16,624 nt of DNA, from positions 1 to 16,624 of the forward strand of contig JBIKWN010000126.1 in NCBI GenBank assembly GCA_044356295.1, written 5' to 3'. Position numbers and translations under genes: made by a program. Positions within the stretch are counted from its first letter, which is position 1. Each line of letters begins with the position of its first letter. Source of the DNA: Bdellovibrionota bacterium. GTDB taxonomy: Bacteria > Bdellovibrionota_C > UBA2361 > JBIKWN01. The notes under the pieces were generated by a model. That model worked only from the letters and a program-made list of their open reading frames with translations. It made no database searches and was not told the DNA's origin. Below, piece after piece: positions 1 through 12,363 of this stretch.

Positions 1-332
1 ATTGCGTCATACATTACAAGACATAAGGAGCCACCAAACAATATATTGTCCTTGTCTAATTTAAATTCAATATTGAACGTTTGCTGCCCATCTTCAGTAG
101 TCTCAGGCTCAACTATTAAGTCTGGATAACTTAGCAGAACATACAACAACGCATCACTGTTAGCTATCTCAATGATTCCTTGATTGCTATAGGAGAAAGA
201 CTTCTTAGCTTCTTCTAACTGTTCTTTATTTAAATTAAATACTGCTGCTTGCTGATAGCAGTAATGTAGATCACTGTTACTACTGTTTAAATAGGGCATA
301 CCTAAATTAATACTATGAATACCTTGCATCAT
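1..332 (-). CDS. Paralog family A member, runs off the left edge (not in ORF track)
   Basis: Manual translation from ATG 332 (GAGGA about 10 nt upstream): MMQGIHSINLGMPYLNSSNSDLHYCYQQAAVFNLNKEQLEE...LLYVLLSYPDL...LCLVMYDA. Matches 350..1045 (LHFGYAQAAVFE...LVYVLLSHSNL...KLVMYD). Confidence 0.85.
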   Translation of the reverse strand, partial: MMQGIHSINLGMPYLNSSNSDLHYCYQQAAVFNLNKEQLEEAKKSFSYSNQGIIEIANSDALLYVLLSYPDLIVEPETTEDGQQTFNIEFKLDKDNILFGGSLCLVMYDA

Positions 333-349
333 AGTATTGAGATCCTCTA

Positions 350-1045
350 TCATAGATGCTCCTCCACTTTGTAGATCCTTGCATATACAAGCTGATTAGG
401 ATTATCACTTAATCTATATTTAGTTCTAGATATTGGAATATGAACACTAAAAATACAATTAGGATTATCTTTAATAAGCCTTTGTGTCTCTTCATCAAAG
501 TCATCAATTTGCTCTAATAGCTTTTCTCTGCAGACCTTATCTCCTATAAAGAAAGTAGGATCTGTCTCTACTCCAACTACAGTTGCAAGAACTACATAGC
601 CCTCTTTATGATGATAAATTACTCTATCCCCAACTTTAAATGGATCTACGGTAGACTTCTTATAGACTTTAATAGCAGGAATGATGCGTTTATTGACGTA
701 GTCATACATTACTAGCTTTACTTCTTCATCGTAGTTTTCTAAAGTCTCTTGCTCATCAATATCAAATTCAAGATAGTACTCATTGTCGTACTTTAGAGAT
801 TGAGTCCTCTTTAAATTACTATGACTAAGAAGTACGTAGACTAAGTATGAATCTTCATTTACAGATACCGTTACTTCTCTATCTAGTTTATCTTTATTCC
901 TGTCTACCCAAGCCTTGTCTGTTTCAAATACTGCTGCCTGTGCATATCCAAAATGCAACTCTTTTGTATATCCATATCCATCTGCATCTACAGTCCTATA
1001 TAGATCCATAGATTCTAAATAGCTAGGAATAATGTTGGCGCTCAT
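350..1045 (-). CDS. Paralog family A hypothetical protein with a C-terminal KOW/SH3-like segment
   Basis: 231 aa ORF with shared motifs AAVFE, YVLLSH, VMYD..KRIIPAI, FKVGDRV, NPNCIFSV. Confidence 0.85.
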   Translation of the reverse strand: MSANIIPSYLESMDLYRTVDADGYGYTKELHFGYAQAAVFETDKAWVDRNKDKLDREVTVSVNEDSYLVYVLLSHSNLKRTQSLKYDNEYYLEFDIDEQETLENYDEEVKLVMYDYVNKRIIPAIKVYKKSTVDPFKVGDRVIYHHKEGYVVLATVVGVETDPTFFIGDKVCREKLLEQIDDFDEETQRLIKDNPNCIFSVHIPISRTKYRLSDNPNQLVYARIYKVEEHL

Positions 1046-1048
1046 ATA

Positions 1049-1468
1049 TTAATATCCTCTTACTTCTTTGTTCTGGTTTAAATCGTACTTTAATTCTTCT
1101 ATGCTTCTTTTAATCTTAATTACTTTGCCTTTAGTTACATGTTGCAGTAATTCAATATGGTGACACTCAATAGAATATTCTGGCGCTACTTCTACTAATT
1201 TATTTAATATCTCTAGACTGTCTGTATATACATAGAAGGTGTTAGAAGCATAATTCTCTGCGGCTTTAAATAGCTCTATTAAATAGTCTCTGTATTTACT
1301 ACTGTGCGTGTTTACTTCAATTGCTGCGTTTATTACAACAACTCCTTTCTTTTTATGCTTATACTTAAGAAAGGAGTTTAACGTAATAAAGCACTGTTCA
1401 GAAGAAGCAATCTCTCTGCAATAAGCTATAACTGCTTCTCTCTTTCCACTGAAGATGTTAATAGTCAT
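1049..1468 (-). CDS. Degenerate C-terminal half of an ABC/AAA_21-type ATPase (likely inactive)
   Basis: VVVINAAIEVNTH resembles Walker B/D-loop hhhhDEIENGLH, FYVYTDSLEIL resembles the H-loop FATTHSLE, and the C-terminus EELKYDLNQNKEVRG resembles COG1106-type ATPase tails. No P-loop. Confidence 0.6.
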   Translation of the reverse strand: MTINIFSGKREAVIAYCREIASSEQCFITLNSFLKYKHKKKGVVVINAAIEVNTHSSKYRDYLIELFKAAENYASNTFYVYTDSLEILNKLVEVAPEYSIECHHIELLQHVTKGKVIKIKRSIEELKYDLNQNKEVRGY

Positions 1469-2207
1469 TTAGATTAAAACAAACAAATGCTCTTGTCTCA
1501 CTAGATATAAACTGCACGGAAGATAAACAGTTTTCTCTTAAGAGATATTTATTGTCTACCTCATAAACCCAAGCCTCTCTGCACACAATATACAGTAAAT
1601 CTGGATTATTAGCTACAGTTAATTGGTCTTCTTTAGACAAAAGATAGCCTTCATCTAGCAAATCACGACCTAATGCAATGTCTGCTCTATGATGACTTTT
1701 AGTCTGCTTGACTTTAGTTACTTTACCAATAACGGTAACATAATTCTCTTCATCTTCTTGCCAGTAGTCCTTACTAACAAGATCACCTACCTTATACTTT
1801 GGCTCTTTTAGTTTGTTCTTACCAACTAATTCAATTGCTGCACTAAAAACCTTCCTTGTTGTGTTGTACATTGCTAGAACGTTTATACCTTCAGTTAATT
1901 CATTCCTAAAGATATAGGTGCCTTCTTCAGTATTAACCGTTAGATCTACATGAGTAAGTGCGACGTACAAATAAATAATATTTAATTCATTAGTTTCATC
2001 TAGATTAGAAGAACTCTCAGTAAAGCTCTGCAGGAATGTTTGAGGAATGTCCTTATACTTCTCTGCTTGTTCTGTTGTAATCTTAAACCTTGCACAGTAA
2101 ACTAAAGACCATGTAGGCTCATCAGCTAGTGCTTCGTCTACAGTAGTAAAGGTTCTAAAGTTAGGATAGGAGTAATAAGGAGTTTGAAAGCTATTATTAT
2201 TAGTCAT
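1458..2207 (-). CDS. Paralog family A hypothetical protein (start revised to ATG 2207, 249 aa)
   Basis: The track start at 2261 runs through a terminator-like hairpin; ATG 2207 has GAGAG upstream. Motifs LYVALTH, AMYN..RKVFSAAI, YKVGDLV, NPDLLYIV, YEVDN. Confidence 0.85.
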   Translation of the reverse strand: MTNNNSFQTPYYSYPNFRTFTTVDEALADEPTWSLVYCARFKITTEQAEKYKDIPQTFLQSFTESSSNLDETNELNIIYLYVALTHVDLTVNTEEGTYIFRNELTEGINVLAMYNTTRKVFSAAIELVGKNKLKEPKYKVGDLVSKDYWQEDEENYVTVIGKVTKVKQTKSHHRADIALGRDLLDEGYLLSKEDQLTVANNPDLLYIVCREAWVYEVDNKYLLRENCLSSVQFISSETRAFVCFNLNDY

Positions 2208-2227
2208 ATACGTTTCTCTCTTAGTAT

Positions 2228-2255
2228 AAAAAAAGTAGCAAGGCACGACACTACT
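2228..2255 (-). terminator. Intrinsic terminator-like hairpin (3' end of element 2)
   Basis: Minus strand AGTAGTG-TCGTGCC-TTGCTACT (stem includes G-U pairs) followed by a T run. Confidence 0.6.
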
Positions 2256-2312
2256 AGGCAAACAAATGGATTTATCCCTACAAAACCCTTCTACCGTACC
2301 TTAATGTAGTAG
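2228..2312 (-). ncRNA. Putative structured RNA or attenuator, copy 2
   Basis: CTAC..AAGGTACGGTAG 5' motif, short GGA-TAAA-TCC hairpin, then terminator. Homologous to 2372..2497. Confidence 0.45.
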
Positions 2313-2371
2313 TTGAGTTATTAAAGACAATATTTTTAATTAGTCTTAGTTAAGTTCTTTTAAGAACAATT

Positions 2372-2402
2372 AAAAAAAAGTAGCAGGATACGACTGCTAC
2401 TT
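2372..2402 (-). terminator. Intrinsic terminator (3' end of element 1)
   Basis: Perfect 9-bp stem AAGTAGCAG/CTGCTACTT with a 7-nt loop, running into T8 on the minus strand. Confidence 0.8.
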
Positions 2403-2497
2403 AATCTGACAAAACACAAATAAACCACCACAAGAATTAACACATATACCTTAATTCTTGCACCCATAAGACCTTCCTACCGTATCTTAGAGTAGTC
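2372..2497 (-). ncRNA. Putative structured RNA or attenuator, copy 1
   Basis: CTAC..AAGATACGGTAG 5' motif, perfect 10-bp hairpin CAAGAATTAA/TTAATTCTTG (2431-2460), then terminator. Confidence 0.45.
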
Positions 2498-2512
2498 AAG
2501 TCAACTAGTAAC

Positions 2513-2846
2513 CTATCTCGTATTAACTTGATACGGACATAAGCTCTGCATTATATACTCTTCTTGATTCCAATTAGTGCTTTCAAAGTCTGGCTTTGAC
2601 CACGTAATAAGACCATACGCCTTATTAAACTTAGCTAAAGATCTAAATTGAGAGGCCAATAAGTATGTATTTTTTTTGATTACCCCAATAAGTATTAGGG
2701 ATACTGGCATATTGCTCTTTATCTGGTATTAAAAATGCCGCTGTTTCTACTAGCTCAAATTCAATAGGATCATGGTTCTTCCAGTTATCAATACTGCATT
2801 CATCTATTAATGCTTGCCGTTCTTTAACCTGTTCTATTTCACTCAT
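2513..2846 (-). pseudogene. About 110-aa hypothetical gene split by one extra base in an A8 run
   Basis: ORF from ATG 2846 (MSEIEQVKE..YWGNQK) joins the 2513 frame (NTYLLASQF..) if one A is removed from the 2670-2677 homopolymer. Confidence 0.6.
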
Positions 2847-2850
2847 TGTT

Positions 2851-3432
2851 TTACTGTATCTCTTTAAACGTATAGTCACTCTTGTATCTATTACTAAAGT
2901 TGTAGCCTACCTCATATCTTAGTACATTATCTAAAATACTTAGCTCTTGAATAATATAACTGTTATTAGTAGCAACAATAAGGATATAGCCCCGTTTAAT
3001 AAGACTCTTAATTACAACGCATAAACTAGCATAGTCTTTTAGATTGACAAATCTATCCGGCTCTTCTAATACAATTAGACTATCAGGTACAAATTCTAAA
3101 ACAGCAGAGTATGGATGCCTATTACTAGCCGCATTATAATCACTTATATAACCATGTATATCTGGCAGATTTAAATAGTCAATACAGAGATGATGACATA
3201 GCACGGCTATAGATATTAGTCTGTAGTCATATAATCTATGTCCTATTCTCTTTGCAACAGATCTCTTAGGCTTAGTTTTTACTAGCTTTAACCAATTAGA
3301 AGTACTATGATATGAGCAGTTGTAGTGATACTGCTTAACTACATCTACTGGGTATTTGTATTGCAACTCCCCACTTAATAGAGTTAGTTTACCTAGCTCT
3401 ATCTCTAGTGTCTTTTTAATTATGAATCTCAT
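2851..3432 (-). CDS. Degenerate ABC/AAA_15-type ATPase-like protein (P-loop lost)
   Basis: IKKTLEIELGKLTLLSGE resembles the pre-P-loop strands but lacks GKS/T; SLIVLEEPD is Walker B/D-loop-like; ILIVATNNSYIIQEL is H-loop-like with His replaced by Asn. Confidence 0.7.
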   Translation of the reverse strand: MRFIIKKTLEIELGKLTLLSGELQYKYPVDVVKQYHYNCSYHSTSNWLKLVKTKPKRSVAKRIGHRLYDYRLISIAVLCHHLCIDYLNLPDIHGYISDYNAASNRHPYSAVLEFVPDSLIVLEEPDRFVNLKDYASLCVVIKSLIKRGYILIVATNNSYIIQELSILDNVLRYEVGYNFSNRYKSDYTFKEIQ

Positions 3433-3454
3433 TGCTTTCTCTATTACCTATTTA

Positions 3455-3479
3455 ATAGCACTAGTAATACTAATGCTAT
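3455..3479 (-). other. Intergenic inverted repeat/hairpin
   Basis: Minus strand ATAGCATTAGT-ATT-ACTAGTGCTAT with one G-U pair; no U tract. Confidence 0.4.
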
Positions 3480-3485
3480 AGTCTA

Positions 3486-4139
3486 TTATTCCTCTAAACC
3501 AACTACTCTCCATGAAGCAAGAATAATACTGTTGTTGACTTCATAGAAAAGCAAAGGCTCTCGTAATACATAAAGAAGATCTGGATTATACGTTATAAAC
3601 TGTACATCTTCTTCTCTACATTGTTTTAGTTGGCCTAGTAGTTCTAATTCAGTGCCTTTATACACTTCAAACAGATCATTATAAGACTGGTATATTACAT
3701 CAGTAATAATACCTGTTTTAGTTACTTCTCCTTCTTCCCAGGCAATTCTAGTATTAATACATAGGGCTGTGTACTCTTCAAATCTAATCTTCTTCTTGTT
3801 AACAACAATAGCAGGAAAGTATTTCTTCTTACTAATACTGTATATAGCAGCACTGCTTTTTGAACTAGTTAGACCCTTATATGTAATAACTCCATCAACA
3901 ATACTTAGTTCTTTGTTGTTTGTAGCAACGTACAATAGATGTTGATGCTCTAATTCATTAACGCCCTTTACAATAGCAGTTATGCACGTATCTTCTAAAT
4001 CTCTATACTGTTCTACCTGCTGCGGCTGAAGCTCAAATACTGAGCACAAGACAAGAGAAAAGTTATTGGGTGGATCTTCTCTAAGCTCATCAACATAGAT
4101 GGCGCCACTTACATCTAATAGTCTATTAATAGTACCCAT
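3486..4139 (-). CDS. Paralog family A hypothetical protein
   Basis: AGGAG RBS; motifs FSLVLCSVFE, LLYVATN, AIYS..KKYFPAI, NPDLLYVL, YEVNN. Confidence 0.85.
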   Translation of the reverse strand: MGTINRLLDVSGAIYVDELREDPPNNFSLVLCSVFELQPQQVEQYRDLEDTCITAIVKGVNELEHQHLLYVATNNKELSIVDGVITYKGLTSSKSSAAIYSISKKKYFPAIVVNKKKIRFEEYTALCINTRIAWEEGEVTKTGIITDVIYQSYNDLFEVYKGTELELLGQLKQCREEDVQFITYNPDLLYVLREPLLFYEVNNSIILASWRVVGLEE

Positions 4140-4236
4140 TTGTTTATTCTCCTAAGTTAACTTAATTAATTCTGTTTAATGGCTTAGGGTCTAACTATTC
4201 TCCAGCCATCATTGCTTTTACTATCCGTTGTTGTTA

Positions 4237-4851
4237 TTAGAGTCTTCTTATCTTAATTAATTCTCTTGTATTTACTAAAGCCTCAAATCCTTTTACTCTA
4301 TACTTATGATGTAGAGTTTTTACTAGGTACAATATATGCGGTATCAAAGACTGCTGAGTTTCATTGTCTAACGTTTTAAATAGACGTCTAAATACGTCTG
4401 CCTTTAATTCTCTACCAGTAAGAACTATAGAATTATTTTTTATAGTCTCAACTATTTCTTCTATAGTACTTACATAGTGAGTTTCGTCAACATCCACTAC
4501 AATTACTTCTTCACCTACTTCAAATATTTCTTCATTATCCACACCTACTATTTCTATATATGGAACTATTGTTCTTGTTCTCATATTAAACATAGCAGTG
4601 TGAATTAGGCCGCCTTCTAAGATGGGATCATAGCCTGCATAAGTATAAGTGCTCTGTTCTTTGTCTTTATATAAGATATTGCTTGGCGTGTTAATTAACA
4701 CAGACAACTGATTTAAATTAGAGTCGTAATAGTTTGTATCTGCATTAATGTCTTGCTTCTTATCATAGTTTTCACAGTAGAACCTTATTACTAATTGCTG
4801 TAGTAAGTCTTTATCTGTTACTTGAAGCATATTCAGTAGTTCTTGAGTCAT
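4237..4851 (-). CDS. Paralog family A hypothetical protein (most diverged member)
   Basis: Motifs AMFNMRTRTIVPYIEI, FEVGEEV, IPHILYLV, KYRV; ATGA overlap with the upstream gene. Confidence 0.75.
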   Translation of the reverse strand: MTQELLNMLQVTDKDLLQQLVIRFYCENYDKKQDINADTNYYDSNLNQLSVLINTPSNILYKDKEQSTYTYAGYDPILEGGLIHTAMFNMRTRTIVPYIEIVGVDNEEIFEVGEEVIVVDVDETHYVSTIEEIVETIKNNSIVLTGRELKADVFRRLFKTLDNETQQSLIPHILYLVKTLHHKYRVKGFEALVNTRELIKIRRL

Positions 4852-5222
4852 TTACTTTTTACCATTAGTATTTTGTCTGGAGGTATTATAGATGCTTCAG
4901 TATCCCATTCCCAATTATTGCGGGGCAAAGGAAGACCATTACTATCACAATCATAGTTAAGTATAGTACAGTCTTGCTTCCACTTCTCAATATCTTTATA
5001 GTAGATAATTAATGAGGCGTTGTCTTGGCATTTAAGAATGCCCCTATTATCTGCATTCTCTTGCCACTTCTCAGGACAAAAGCAATGAAAGTCAAAGCAA
5101 TTAGGTCTAGCATCCAGACGTTCTAAGCCTACGGTAGTTACATATAATTGTTTTTCTATCTCTACAACATGCATTACGTAGCGCTCATTGTCTATAAGCT
5201 TTGCTCTTAGAATTATTGACAT
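4848..5222 (-). CDS. Hypothetical protein (start revised to ATG 5222, 124 aa)
   Basis: MSIILRAKL...; stop overlaps the next start. Confidence 0.7.
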   Translation of the reverse strand: MSIILRAKLIDNERYVMHVVEIEKQLYVTTVGLERLDARPNCFDFHCFCPEKWQENADNRGILKCQDNASLIIYYKDIEKWKQDCTILNYDCDSNGLPLPRNNWEWDTEASIIPPDKILMVKSK

Positions 5223-5223
5223 A

Positions 5224-5419
5224 CTAATAGATTTTATTAAGTATTTTATTAATATTGCTAATACTTTTCTTATATAACACACTCAAGCTGCTAGCATAAG
5301 CCTTCTTGAAATACAAAAGGATGTGTTCTGTTCATATAAACAGCAAGTCTATGCATAGCCAGCAAAGAACACTGCTTATGTCTATTGCGTCTTATCCATC
5401 TCTTACTATGGCTCTTCAT
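5224..5419 (-). pseudogene. Small basic protein gene with an apparent frameshift
   Basis: ATG 5419 overlaps the upstream TGA (MKSHSKRWIRR..HP). Removing one base near CCTTTT continues LYFKKAYASS..NKIY* to TAG 5224, 1 nt before the next ATG. Confidence 0.4.
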
Positions 5420-5920: not shown

Positions 5921-6817
5921 TTAATTGTGAGCACTGTTCCAGTAATCAATTATGTTAGAGTAATTAACTCTTTGATCTGTGGAAGAGCGAGAAGTAGGCG
6001 CATATTGCATCTCTACTGCATCAATATACATTGAATGGGTAAAGTCATCCCCCATGTATAACTTATTCCACATCTCTTCAGAGAAGAATCTCTTTAACTT
6101 TAACTGCTCAATACCTAGATTATCAAAAGACAATAGACACTTGTCAAATAAAGATCTTACATAGATTATCCAGGATTGAAGATTATCTTCTACTGTCTTG
6201 TCAAAGTAAGTAATACCTCTTCCAAACGTCTTATAGCCTAGTACTAATATCTTTCTAGGAGCGCCCAGTTCAAGCATAGTAAGTACGTCTTTTACTGTAT
6301 GCACTCCTGCAATCATATGCAGTACTACTCTCTCTTGCGCTGTACTGGTTAACCAGGTAGGGAGACTAGCTACATTTACTATAGATACTCCTATTCCCTT
6401 AACAAGATCATTAACTACTAACTCTTGTATCAAGGATCTGTACTGAGTTAAGTGGCCCTGATTAATGGTGATATTGGCGTATTTACCTTGTTGCTTTACT
6501 GCGTACAAGAACTGTAACAGATTAGGGTGAGCTAAAGGATTTCCTCCACCAATAGCCAGCTCAATACCTTCAGGTAGAATAGCTAATTGATCTAGTAGTA
6601 GAGATATGTCTCCATGCCTTCCTTTAGTAGTAGAATCTTCATGACAGTAAGCGCAAGGCATATTGCAGTAATTAGTAATCTTTACGTCAATACTAGAAGG
6701 AAAGGCTGCTTTGGGATTAACTACGCTACTCTCTTTTGTAAACGTTCCACTGCTGTAGAGCGTGCATTTAAAGTCTCCATTTACATAACTTGCTAATACT
6801 ATATCTTCTGTTATCAT
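5921..6817 (-). CDS. Radical SAM enzyme
   Basis: CxxxCxxC motif (DVKITNYCNMPCAYCHE), GGE-like motif IGGGNP, ANITIN strand; no C-terminal SPASM cysteines. Confidence 0.93.
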   Translation of the reverse strand: MITEDIVLASYVNGDFKCTLYSSGTFTKESSVVNPKAAFPSSIDVKITNYCNMPCAYCHEDSTTKGRHGDISLLLDQLAILPEGIELAIGGGNPLAHPNLLQFLYAVKQQGKYANITINQGHLTQYRSLIQELVVNDLVKGIGVSIVNVASLPTWLTSTAQERVVLHMIAGVHTVKDVLTMLELGAPRKILVLGYKTFGRGITYFDKTVEDNLQSWIIYVRSLFDKCLLSFDNLGIEQLKLKRFFSEEMWNKLYMGDDFTHSMYIDAVEMQYAPTSRSSTDQRVNYSNIIDYWNSAHN

Positions 6818-6823
6818 TATTAA

Positions 6824-7273
6824 CTAATCGCCTTTAGTAACTAAAACTGATTTGGGATTAAAAATAAACTCTCTTAGAAGTTCGGGTACTTCAAATAAGT
6901 AATCAATATCTCTATTTTCAACGGACTGATGATCTATGTATCCTGTATTCTCTGAAGGCAGTACAACTTCTAAAGGCGCCCCTACTTGATCTTGAATAGT
7001 CTTAATTAAGACGCTCAAATATCTATTTTTATCTTTTTCTTTTTTTTGTATCCAATCTCTTATGTAGATAGCGCAATATGATGCCTTTGCTTCTGCTCCA
7101 TAATATTCATGCACACTTAGACCAAAGTCATATCCTCCTATAACAATCTTATTGTCCTTATTAGGATATAGAGTTTCTAGTACGTCTCCTAATTTACTTT
7201 CAATAATAGTTATACTGTGTGTACTTGAAGAGTTTGTCTCAAATAAGTTATGTCTAGTCTGTATGGTATTCAT
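6824..7273 (-). CDS. 'RxxxFETNSSSTHS' N-terminal motif protein, radical SAM-associated
   Basis: MNTIQTRHNLFETNSSSTHSITI, GYIDHQS and LREFIFNPKS motifs; ends 6 nt before the radical SAM gene. Confidence 0.8.
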   Translation of the reverse strand: MNTIQTRHNLFETNSSSTHSITIIESKLGDVLETLYPNKDNKIVIGGYDFGLSVHEYYGAEAKASYCAIYIRDWIQKKEKDKNRYLSVLIKTIQDQVGAPLEVVLPSENTGYIDHQSVENRDIDYLFEVPELLREFIFNPKSVLVTKGD

Positions 7274-10757: not shown

Positions 10758-11204
10758 TTAAAGAAAAAAATACTGGACCCATAAATAATATCCATGTATT
10801 TCTGTTAACGACATAATTTTATTGCCTTGTTCTAAGGGACTTAAGCCCTCTCTAGCTTTCTTCCAACAATGGTCTTTAGATATGTCACTTAACTCTTGTC
10901 CACTTTTATCTTTAAGCTGTTTAAGCGCTGCATTAATACAATCCTTTTGATTGCTAGTTAAAGCGCCTATATCTCCATCGCTAAAATTGTTGTGATCTAC
11001 TCTAAAAACACCTTTATGGTAAGGATATAGAGCAGGCACTGCAGGACCTGTAGGCCATGCATGAATATCTTCATTAAATAGAGAGTGCTTATCCCACACA
11101 AGACACCATACTTGACTAAAGTAAATAAGCCTTTGTAGCTTCATTGGGGCTACTTCACCAATCTCTGTAGTTATATACAGAGCTACATCTACTACTCTTG
11201 CCAT
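10758..11204 (-). CDS. Panacea-domain (DUF4065, SocA/PanA-like) antitoxin
   Basis: DVALYI..MKLQRLIYFSQVW..LFNEDIHAWPTGPAVPALY..ELSDIS..WKKAR matches the DUF4065 signature KLQKLLY..AW..GPV. Confidence 0.88.
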   Translation of the reverse strand: MARVVDVALYITTEIGEVAPMKLQRLIYFSQVWCLVWDKHSLFNEDIHAWPTGPAVPALYPYHKGVFRVDHNNFSDGDIGALTSNQKDCINAALKQLKDKSGQELSDISKDHCWKKAREGLSPLEQGNKIMSLTEIHGYYLWVQYFFL

Positions 11205-11806: not shown

Positions 11807-12076
11807 TCATTGCTTATTTAATCCACCGTCATTATTAGATATAAAGTCTTTTAGTAATTTAATTTCTTCGTCTAAGGTTCCTTCTGACCATTCAATGTAG
11901 GTCCAGTTAATTCTGTCTTCTGATTGTTCAATATGTATAGTCGCATCAATATTTAAATACTCATTGTAATCATCTATAGAAGCTGCAACTGCAAGCGCTG
12001 TCTCTAGTGAAGTACATTCCTGTATAAAAAGACTGTTGTCTTTATTGTTTAATACGCTTACATTATAGTAACTCAT
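11807..12076 (-). CDS. Hypothetical protein (paralog pair C)
   Basis: EYLNIDATIHIEQSEDRINWT; GAGG RBS; ATGA overlap. Confidence 0.75.
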   Translation of the reverse strand: MSYYNVSVLNNKDNSLFIQECTSLETALAVAASIDDYNEYLNIDATIHIEQSEDRINWTYIEWSEGTLDEEIKLLKDFISNNDGGLNKQ

Positions 12077-12363
12077 ACAAATACCTCAACTACTTTACCA
12101 TAAATGTTCTTTGTCCAGTCATTAATGCTGCCCTTGTTACTTCCAATTAAGCAACCACGTCTATTATCTTTTGCCTTTACAAGATGAGTATAAAAGCGCC
12201 CAGATACTTTACAGTAGACAATATCTCCTACATTAACCTCTTCCCAGTTAGCTGGAACTAAGCGATGTAGTTGTCCAGACTTTATAAGAGGAATCATTGA
12301 ATTGCCCTGCTCTTTAGTAATAAAGCTTTCACCTGCTTCTAGCTTCTCTACCTTCCAATTCAT
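12073..12363 (-). CDS. Stand-alone peptidase S24/S26-like domain
   Basis: GNSMIPLIKSG (catalytic Ser), VGDIVY, THLVK (His at the general-base position), IYGKV. Confidence 0.8.
   Translation of the reverse strand: MNWKVEKLEAGESFITKEQGNSMIPLIKSGQLHRLVPANWEEVNVGDIVYCKVSGRFYTHLVKAKDNRRGCLIGSNKGSINDWTKNIYGKVVEVFV

Follow-up and report, generated by a model that had tools for sequence, protein, structure and literature searches.

An array of at least seven deeply diverged tandem paralogues, interleaved with ATPase-like reading frames, in a probable freshwater myovirus

Why would a genome carry a row of small genes that resemble one another and match no known family? The question is raised by positions 1 to 4,851 of contig JBIKWN010000126.1 (C56 below), one of the 128 contigs of assembly GCA_044356295.1 (2.96 Mb), which is filed under the name Bdellovibrionota bacterium. 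The window that we analyzed is the entire contig of 16,624 bases, with a GC content of 33-34% and all long open reading frames (ORFs) on the minus strand. An initial annotation had described the region as an array of five diverged paralogues, here called family A, interleaved with dead ATPase fragments and structured RNA elements. We find that the array comprises at least seven tandem paralogues: five in the window, a sixth that is truncated, and a seventh past the contig end. We tentatively interpret them as a family of binding proteins for host takeover or counter-defence, a reading to which, taken as a whole, we give somewhat less than an even chance, with nearly all of this confidence on its descriptive part.

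The five A genes of the window, listed from right to left and all on the minus strand, are A5 (4237-4851, 204 amino acids, the most diverged paralogue), A4 (3486-4139, 217 amino acids), A3 (1458-2207, 249 amino acids, with its ATG at 2207), A2 (350-1045, 231 amino acids) and A1 (3-353), of which the N-terminal 117 amino acids remain because the gene is cut by the contig end. The A1 start is the ATG at 353 and not position 332, as initially annotated. Pairwise BLASTP links A1 to A2 (E-value 9e-8) and A3 to A4 (1e-16), and the remaining pairs are marginal (0.04-0.06). When hidden Markov models (HMMs) built from subsets of the proteins were searched against the 118 stop-to-stop ORFs of the window, the left-out A members ranked first or within the top five in each search: the A3+A4+A5 profile found A2 (E-value 5e-6), the A2+A3+A4 profile found A5 (2e-4) and A1 (3e-4), and the A1+A2 profile found A3 (7e-4). 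An hhalign comparison of nine non-A5 with 14 A5 sequences gave 95.5% probability and an E-value of 1.5e-8 over 129 columns. These comparisons show that the five ORFs are true, very diverged homologues, as the initial annotation had supposed; A5 belongs to the family from the LYV motif onward, with an N-terminus too diverged for alignment. Further paralogue pairs were not found in the window at an E-value of 1e-3 or below.

The ordered motifs on which the array had first been recognized (AVF, LYV, MY..K..PAI, VGDxV, NPDLLY and YEV) are visible in MAFFT alignments. Invariant columns are limited to M1, F, V, Y, K and Y, and the single lysine is an arginine in A5. As the invariant positions are thus confined to core hydrophobic and aromatic residues and this one basic residue, the A proteins are most likely non-enzymatic binders. 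It had also been proposed that the C-terminal domains differ in specificity. Whichever segment of the protein is taken, pairwise identity averages 18-26%, and none stands out as a "specificity" domain in the per-segment comparison.

The genes are tightly packed. The stop codon of a 144-amino-acid ORF upstream of A5 (4848-5282, minus strand) overlaps the A5 start, the end of A3 overlaps the ORF that we call X1 (1049-1468, minus strand, 139 amino acids) by 11 nucleotides, and the A1 start overlaps the A2 stop by 4 nucleotides. Such overlapping starts and stops are operon-type packing. Twice, a paralogue is followed by an ATPase-like ORF, A4 by X2 (2851-3432, minus strand, 193 amino acids) and A3 by X1, exactly in the order initially described. 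The A proteins of the window are acidic (isoelectric point, pI, 4.8-5.3), and X1 and X2 are basic (pI 8.7 and 9.0, respectively).

To find further members, 1,835,955,588 representative proteins were searched with a profile built from the five, at an E-value cut-off of 0.001. Seven matches were obtained, three of which were A3, A2 and A5 of the window or near-identical copies. The others were P0005, a full-length form of A1 with 233 amino acids; P0006, an A4-like protein 40% identical to A4; P0007, with 242 amino acids, the full form of a sixth paralogue, A6; and P0008, with 224 amino acids, which shares its cluster with P0010. Full-length A1 relatives have 233-236 amino acids and are 96% identical to window A1 over its 117 amino acids.

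The sixth paralogue is present in the window as a stump. A 78-amino-acid ORF (2643-2879, minus strand) has homology to the family within 2688-2879, with window positions 2879-2688 corresponding to amino acids 1-64 of P0007. The match ends abruptly after ...IPNTY and the frame stops at 2643; the rest of P0007, past amino acid 64, has no counterpart anywhere in the window. In the profile search of the whole assembly the stump scored with an E-value of 2.6e-11. Contigs from two other sequencing runs bridge the same truncated form (records over 2312-3674 and 1965-2533), and the truncation is for this reason not an assembly error. A6 is a dispensable copy, truncated in the widespread form of the array. 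In place of its missing part, downstream of the stump, stands a non-coding stretch of about 430 bases (about 2208-2642) that separates it from A3. Separately, at position 2669, just past the break point, contigs of two other runs carry one extra homopolymer base.

The seventh paralogue, A0, is P0010 (224 amino acids). It lies beyond the left end of the window, on a metagenome contig of 3,010 bases (L008) that carries, in order, the end of A2, a complete A1 (236 amino acids, L008:384-1094), the seventh paralogue, and a gene for an RlaP-family nucleotidyltransferase of the RNA-repair pathway (L008:1889-3010, plus strand, at least 374 amino acids, PF10127 with an E-value of 6.1e-9). A cluster look-up placed all seven A types on one contig of 44,994 bases and five types on another of 59,568 bases.

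A maximum-likelihood tree groups A2 with A1 and A0, as (A2,(A1,A0)), and A6 with A4 and P0006, as (A6,(A4,P0006)), with A3 and A5 joining the latter group. Support is moderate (75-89, none starred), and the end branches are 0.7-3.9 changes per site long. In the tree, genes that lie side by side are nearest relatives, and the array therefore expanded through successive tandem duplications, after which the copies diverged strongly, to about 20-30% identity; given the long branches and the moderate support, we make no claim about the order of the duplications.

Deep divergence alone could also arise if the array were a largely neutral expansion of ORFan genes in a hyperplastic region, with copies that drift and get lost and no partitioned specificities. 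The truncated A6, in a form also carried by contigs of two other runs, would fit this picture, and so would the restriction of the family to one narrow phage lineage and the equally high divergence of all protein segments. However, six copies are still full-length frames despite saturating divergence, with the core motifs retained in order; the relatives from many samples are intact; and start and stop codons that overlap are a sign of a compact operon that is expressed. We consider neutral expansion very unlikely.

The reach of the family is narrow in sequence space and wide in sampling. Among 40 related genomes none had family A; it was found in its own assembly only, at six places, all on C56. 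Neither megablast nor tblastn matched INPHARED phages, and there was no match in IMG/VR scans with A4, P0006 and P0008, in GTDB genome contigs with P0007 and P0010, or in metagenome contigs with P0006, and P0010 matched only L008 among the latter. Pfam had no match for A1-A4 at an E-value of 0.1 or below, only unrelated sub-threshold rows for A5, and none for P0005-P0008 at 0.01 or below; the PDB chain sequences showed no similarity to the A proteins. A literature search found no publication describing such a family, and the main text of the preprint on the EVADES anti-defence catalogue, the part of that source considered here, mentions no ATPase, AAA, SH3, Tudor or paralogue. Family A is thus undescribed in all libraries searched and confined to one narrow phage lineage. 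Within this lineage it recurs. At least half of the sampled words of the stretch were present in 18 DNA runs, and 20 runs from 16 studies, mostly of lakes and other freshwater and one labelled seawater, hold all or part of it. Thirteen relatives of A5 in other records are 91-100% identical to it, and the full-length ones among those listed all have 204 amino acids. A relative of A4 is 94% identical, and word-index protein searches with A4, X2 and X1 returned near-identical relatives only.

AlphaFold2 models were obtained for A3 (from a 5-sequence alignment, mean predicted local distance difference test score, pLDDT, 54, confident just at residues about 30-120) and for A2 (9-sequence alignment, pLDDT 68.6), in which both domains are modelled. 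The N-terminal domain of the A2 model (about residues 31-129) is alpha/beta, with one helix and mostly beta structure. The C-terminal domain (residues 130-231, block mean pLDDT 59-85 except for the last residue) forms a small barrel into which helices (168-193) are inserted, about 25 residues in all. An exhaustive structural search with VIA-align superposed the barrel on SH3-like barrels of Tudor, chromo, PWWP, L24/KOW and DSIF KOW domains with Z-scores of 6-8.6, and in most rows with root-mean-square deviations (rmsd) of 1.6-3 over 47-62 residues; 136 chains reached a Z-score of at least 5, and one a Z-score of at least 8. The C-terminal domain is accordingly predicted to adopt an SH3/Tudor/KOW-like small barrel fold, in agreement with the KOW/SH3-like assignment of the initial annotation. 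The Foldseek check that had been suggested at the same time was less favorable: the barrel was recovered by VIA-align, but Foldseek gave no match of the A2 model at an E-value of 0.001 or below in either BFVD or PDB. Compared with the known SH3-like barrels, the predicted A barrel lacks a sequence-family match, contains the helical insert, and is fused to an N-terminal alpha/beta domain without a clear known fold.

The single best superposition points to a virion component. It is that with chain S of PDB entry 8qkh, from the virion neck of Staphylococcus phage 812 (Z-score 8.6, rmsd 1.6, 56 residues), and this chain is presumably gp164. Foldseek against PDB led to the same entry (8qkh_s, E-value 0.071, probability 0.80), and the top BFVD match was an uncharacterised protein of 146 amino acids from Staphylococcus phage phiSA_BS1 (E-value 4.3e-3). 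As far as the available part of the report on phage 812 goes (PMC12886913), gp164 is the stopper decoration protein and consists of a globular alpha/beta domain at the N-terminus and, at the C-terminus, a beta-barrel. The A proteins might then be virion-associated decoration or adaptor proteins, since the two-part plan is the same and this is the top structural match. However, the barrel alone superposes (residues 132-229 of the model on 96-152 of the chain) and the N-terminal domain does not, unrelated Tudor and chromo rows come within 1 of the Z-score of 8.6, and the weak Foldseek scores go along with the lack of sequence similarity to PDB chains. The candidate gp164 chain has 148 residues versus 204-249 in the A proteins, again without sequence similarity. 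As described in the same partial source, gp164 is one stopper decoration protein, as opposed to at least seven tandem A paralogues known here from their genes; seven diverged copies, one of them dispensable, are a poor fit to a structural role. In addition, the A genes lie among small ORFs of unknown function, and the sheath, head and portal genes are on other contigs. A virion role is the main alternative to host-directed binding, and we regard it as unlikely.

The same search can be read in a different direction. Tudor-like and KOW domains bind RNA polymerase or the ribosome, and the matches of the A2 model include ribosomal L24/KOW, DSIF KOW6-7 and the Tudor domain of UvrD1 (Z-scores 6.1-7.8). 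The A proteins could on this basis act on gene expression, with the barrel docking on RNA polymerase, the ribosome or nucleic acid and the paralogues tuning different steps. Against this, the KOW and Tudor sequence profiles of Pfam did not match any A protein, the acidic pI disfavors direct nucleic-acid binding, and the barrel families are indistinguishable, with rows tied within about 1 Z-score, so that no sub-family can be named for the A barrel. We judge an expression role to be quite improbable.

The initial annotation had called X1 and X2 dead ATPase fragments. The likeness to ATPases is partly borne out, but the ORFs are not decayed: both are intact and have near-identical copies on other contigs (100% and 86% identity for X2, 99% for X1). 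Neither has a match in the family libraries, with nothing in Pfam even at an E-value of 10 or below, and the window is absent among the 29 matches to PF13304 (AAA_21) in the assembly at an E-value of 0.001 or below. A regular-expression scan for GxxxxGK[ST] (Walker A) found no site in X1 or X2, and a PDB sequence search with X2 gave chance-level rows only.

For X2, the evidence for an ATPase-like fold comes from three sides. In the ESM Atlas feature search it scored 0.92-0.94 to ABC_tran/AAA_21 clusters, the ten best family-bearing matches all belonging to one clan. Its Atlas structure (model pLDDT 0.55) had template modelling (TM) scores by query of 0.58-0.63 to AAA_15/AAA_21 over 144-167 of the 193 residues. 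A profile built from ten ABC ATPases that this assembly encodes ranked X2 first among the 118 window ORFs, with an E-value of 0.0094 versus 0.82 for the next, and weakly aligned its residues of about 118-165 (SLIVLEEPDRF...ILIVATNN) to the Walker B, D-loop and H-loop region, with the consensus Walker B Asp replaced by Glu and the H-loop His by Asn. For X1, the Atlas structure (model pLDDT 0.66) gave TM scores by query of 0.63-0.69 to AAA_15/AAA_21; the Atlas feature search had no match, and the ten-ATPase profile did not detect it (E-value 5.2). Both proteins are thus predicted to share the core fold of ABC-type ATPases (AAA_15/AAA_21, PF13175/PF13304) without a P-loop, in 139 and 193 amino acids for X1 and X2 as compared with mostly about 340-470 (201-700 among the rows listed) for the family-bearing Atlas clusters. 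"Degenerate ATPase" is a reasonable description for X2, and for X1 a lead only. The idea that the same ATPase occurs twice has no sequence support, as an hhalign comparison of X1 with X2 showed no similarity. Co-folding of A3 (with the family alignment) and X1 scored 0.00 against a mark of 0.32, in a run without controls, and speaks neither for nor against binding.

Structured RNA elements, which had also been proposed, were not borne out by the searches of the intergenic stretch. No tRNA was found in the window, the best of three sub-threshold Rfam matches reached 29.7 bits versus a gathering score of 55 (none with an E-value below 0.045), and positions 2208-2530 fold no better than shuffled sequences (z -1.66; 7 of 100 shuffles fold equally well). 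What the stretch does contain is one clear intrinsic terminator (2402-2378, minus strand), together with a weaker T-run hairpin copy (2249-2228). The terminator is part of a locally duplicated module with copies at 2368-2512 and 2222-2326 (minus strand), each with a core of the TACGGTAGRARG type. This 12-base TACGGTAGRARG core occurs at the two intergenic copies only in the whole assembly, and a role as a phage-wide promoter is ruled out by this count. Promoter-like sites are not enriched either (21 found versus a shuffle mean of 26.4).

How, then, might the array work? We propose that the A proteins would be binding or adaptor proteins, that their common scaffold would offer a different surface to each partner while the phage takes over the host or counters its defences, and that X1 and X2, lacking a P-loop, could serve as non-hydrolysing stand-ins for ABC-type ATPases. 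ABC-type ATPases drive defence systems of the PrrC/RloC, PARIS, Septu and Gabija class. A more specific version would make the locus a counter-defence battery in which ABC-ATPase defence complexes are jammed by X1 and X2 in the role of non-hydrolysing decoy subunits, the A paralogues are adaptors matched to individual systems, and RlaP mends the damage that several of these systems do to tRNA; Septu, according to the part of a report on phage T6 available here, cleaves tRNA-Tyr (PMC13096335). We give this version little credence.

Several observations weigh against a host-directed role. The A proteins matched none of the Pfam, PHROG, NCBIfam or PADLOC families, and no defence or anti-defence family is among the hits; the PADLOC rows for the A proteins, X1 and X2 are weak (E-values of 8e-4 to 0.03) and mutually unrelated. 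Of the initial idea of an expanded, diversifying host-interaction or anti-defence cassette, the tandemly expanded and strongly diverged family stands, and the assignment to defence or anti-defence has no counterpart in PADLOC or PHROGs. Ongoing rapid change, as the word "diversifying" implies, is not seen, as the A relatives from different samples share 91-100% identity. An SH3-like fold is a generic one, and according to the tool a Z-score under 8 may reflect a mere common arrangement. The N-terminal domain found nothing above a Z-score of 3.9, its weak matches being ferredoxin-like two-layer folds, and the A models were built from alignments of 5-9 sequences with pLDDT values of 54-69. The ATPase likeness of X1 comes from a single predicted model. 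An early-region status of the array is assumed from gene content; contigs from RNA libraries span only 8 of 30 and 4 of 30 bins and possibly derive from DNA. Finally, no assembly link was found between C56 and the phage contigs C9, C10 and C55 described below, so that their grouping is by composition only.

Large phages with tandem ORFan families are well known, and so are SH3-like barrels. The unusual feature of this locus is the combination of a paralogue array with proteins of predicted ATPase fold that lack a P-loop. The closest parallel among the sources at hand is the segmental amplification of anti-defence loci in phage T6 (PMC13096335, seen in part), where accessory genes of a lytic myovirus are likewise multiplied in tandem. 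Unlike the T6-type loci as that partial source presents them, the A copies are ancient and deeply diverged and not recent identical amplifications, and their counter-defence role is one that we infer.

The genomic context agrees with a phage origin of the window. The tetranucleotide distance of C56 is 0.033 versus an assembly median of 0.007, which makes it an outlier, and its GC content is 33.5% versus 38.7%. It clusters with the likewise deviating contigs C9, C10, C55 and C13, at distances of 0.017-0.021 as compared with 0.037 to two host contigs. Overlaps of 127 bases at the contig ends chain C9, C10 and C55 together. These four contigs encode structural and packaging proteins (tail sheath, baseplate wedge, major head protein, portal and large terminase), replication proteins (DNA polymerase, primase, helicases and a UvsX-like recombinase) and nucleotide metabolism enzymes (ribonucleotide reductase and thymidylate synthase), and C55 also carries an RNA-ligase-like gene (L011:99-773). 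Most likely, the array contig belongs to a lytic freshwater myovirus that exceeds 100 kb and was binned into a bacterial metagenome-assembled genome, with C56 linked to it by its composition. In total, about 115 kb of phage DNA, window included, was apparently binned in this way. As a separate observation, a 1,879-amino-acid ORF (L011:955-6594, minus strand) has five separate stretches of match to ribonucleotide reductase (phrog_367), and could contain inserted elements such as inteins.

The remainder of the window resembles a typical accessory block, mainly of small ORFs without known function. Exceptions, all on the minus strand, are a radical-SAM protein (5921-6817; PF04055 with an E-value of 2.4e-8, phrog_16999 with 3.4e-63, and a weak likeness to pVip models with 8.6e-9), preceded upstream by a 149-amino-acid protein (6824-7273, phrog_28997, function not known); a SocA/Panacea-domain protein of 148 amino acids (10758-11204; PF13274 with an E-value of 1.9e-13, phrog_1281 with 3.4e-25), whose domain is of an antitoxin type, with no evident toxin partner adjacent; and a 96-amino-acid ORF (12073-12363) that is borderline S24 peptidase-like (23.1 bits versus a cut-off of 23.3).

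Large environmental phages hold many unexplained multi-copy gene families. Family A is one of these, from a lake and freshwater phage seen in many studies, and it is a well-delimited new family, with functions that are so far proposed by inference. Its predicted architecture is tractable, a generic binding barrel on an N-terminal domain without a known fold. If the proteins should be virion decoration proteins, they would represent an unusual multiplication of a neck component. If instead the copies bind different host factors, as we tentatively favor, the array would amount to a compact, naturally occurring library of binders for takeover or counter-defence, through which the defences of a freshwater host not yet in culture might be identified.

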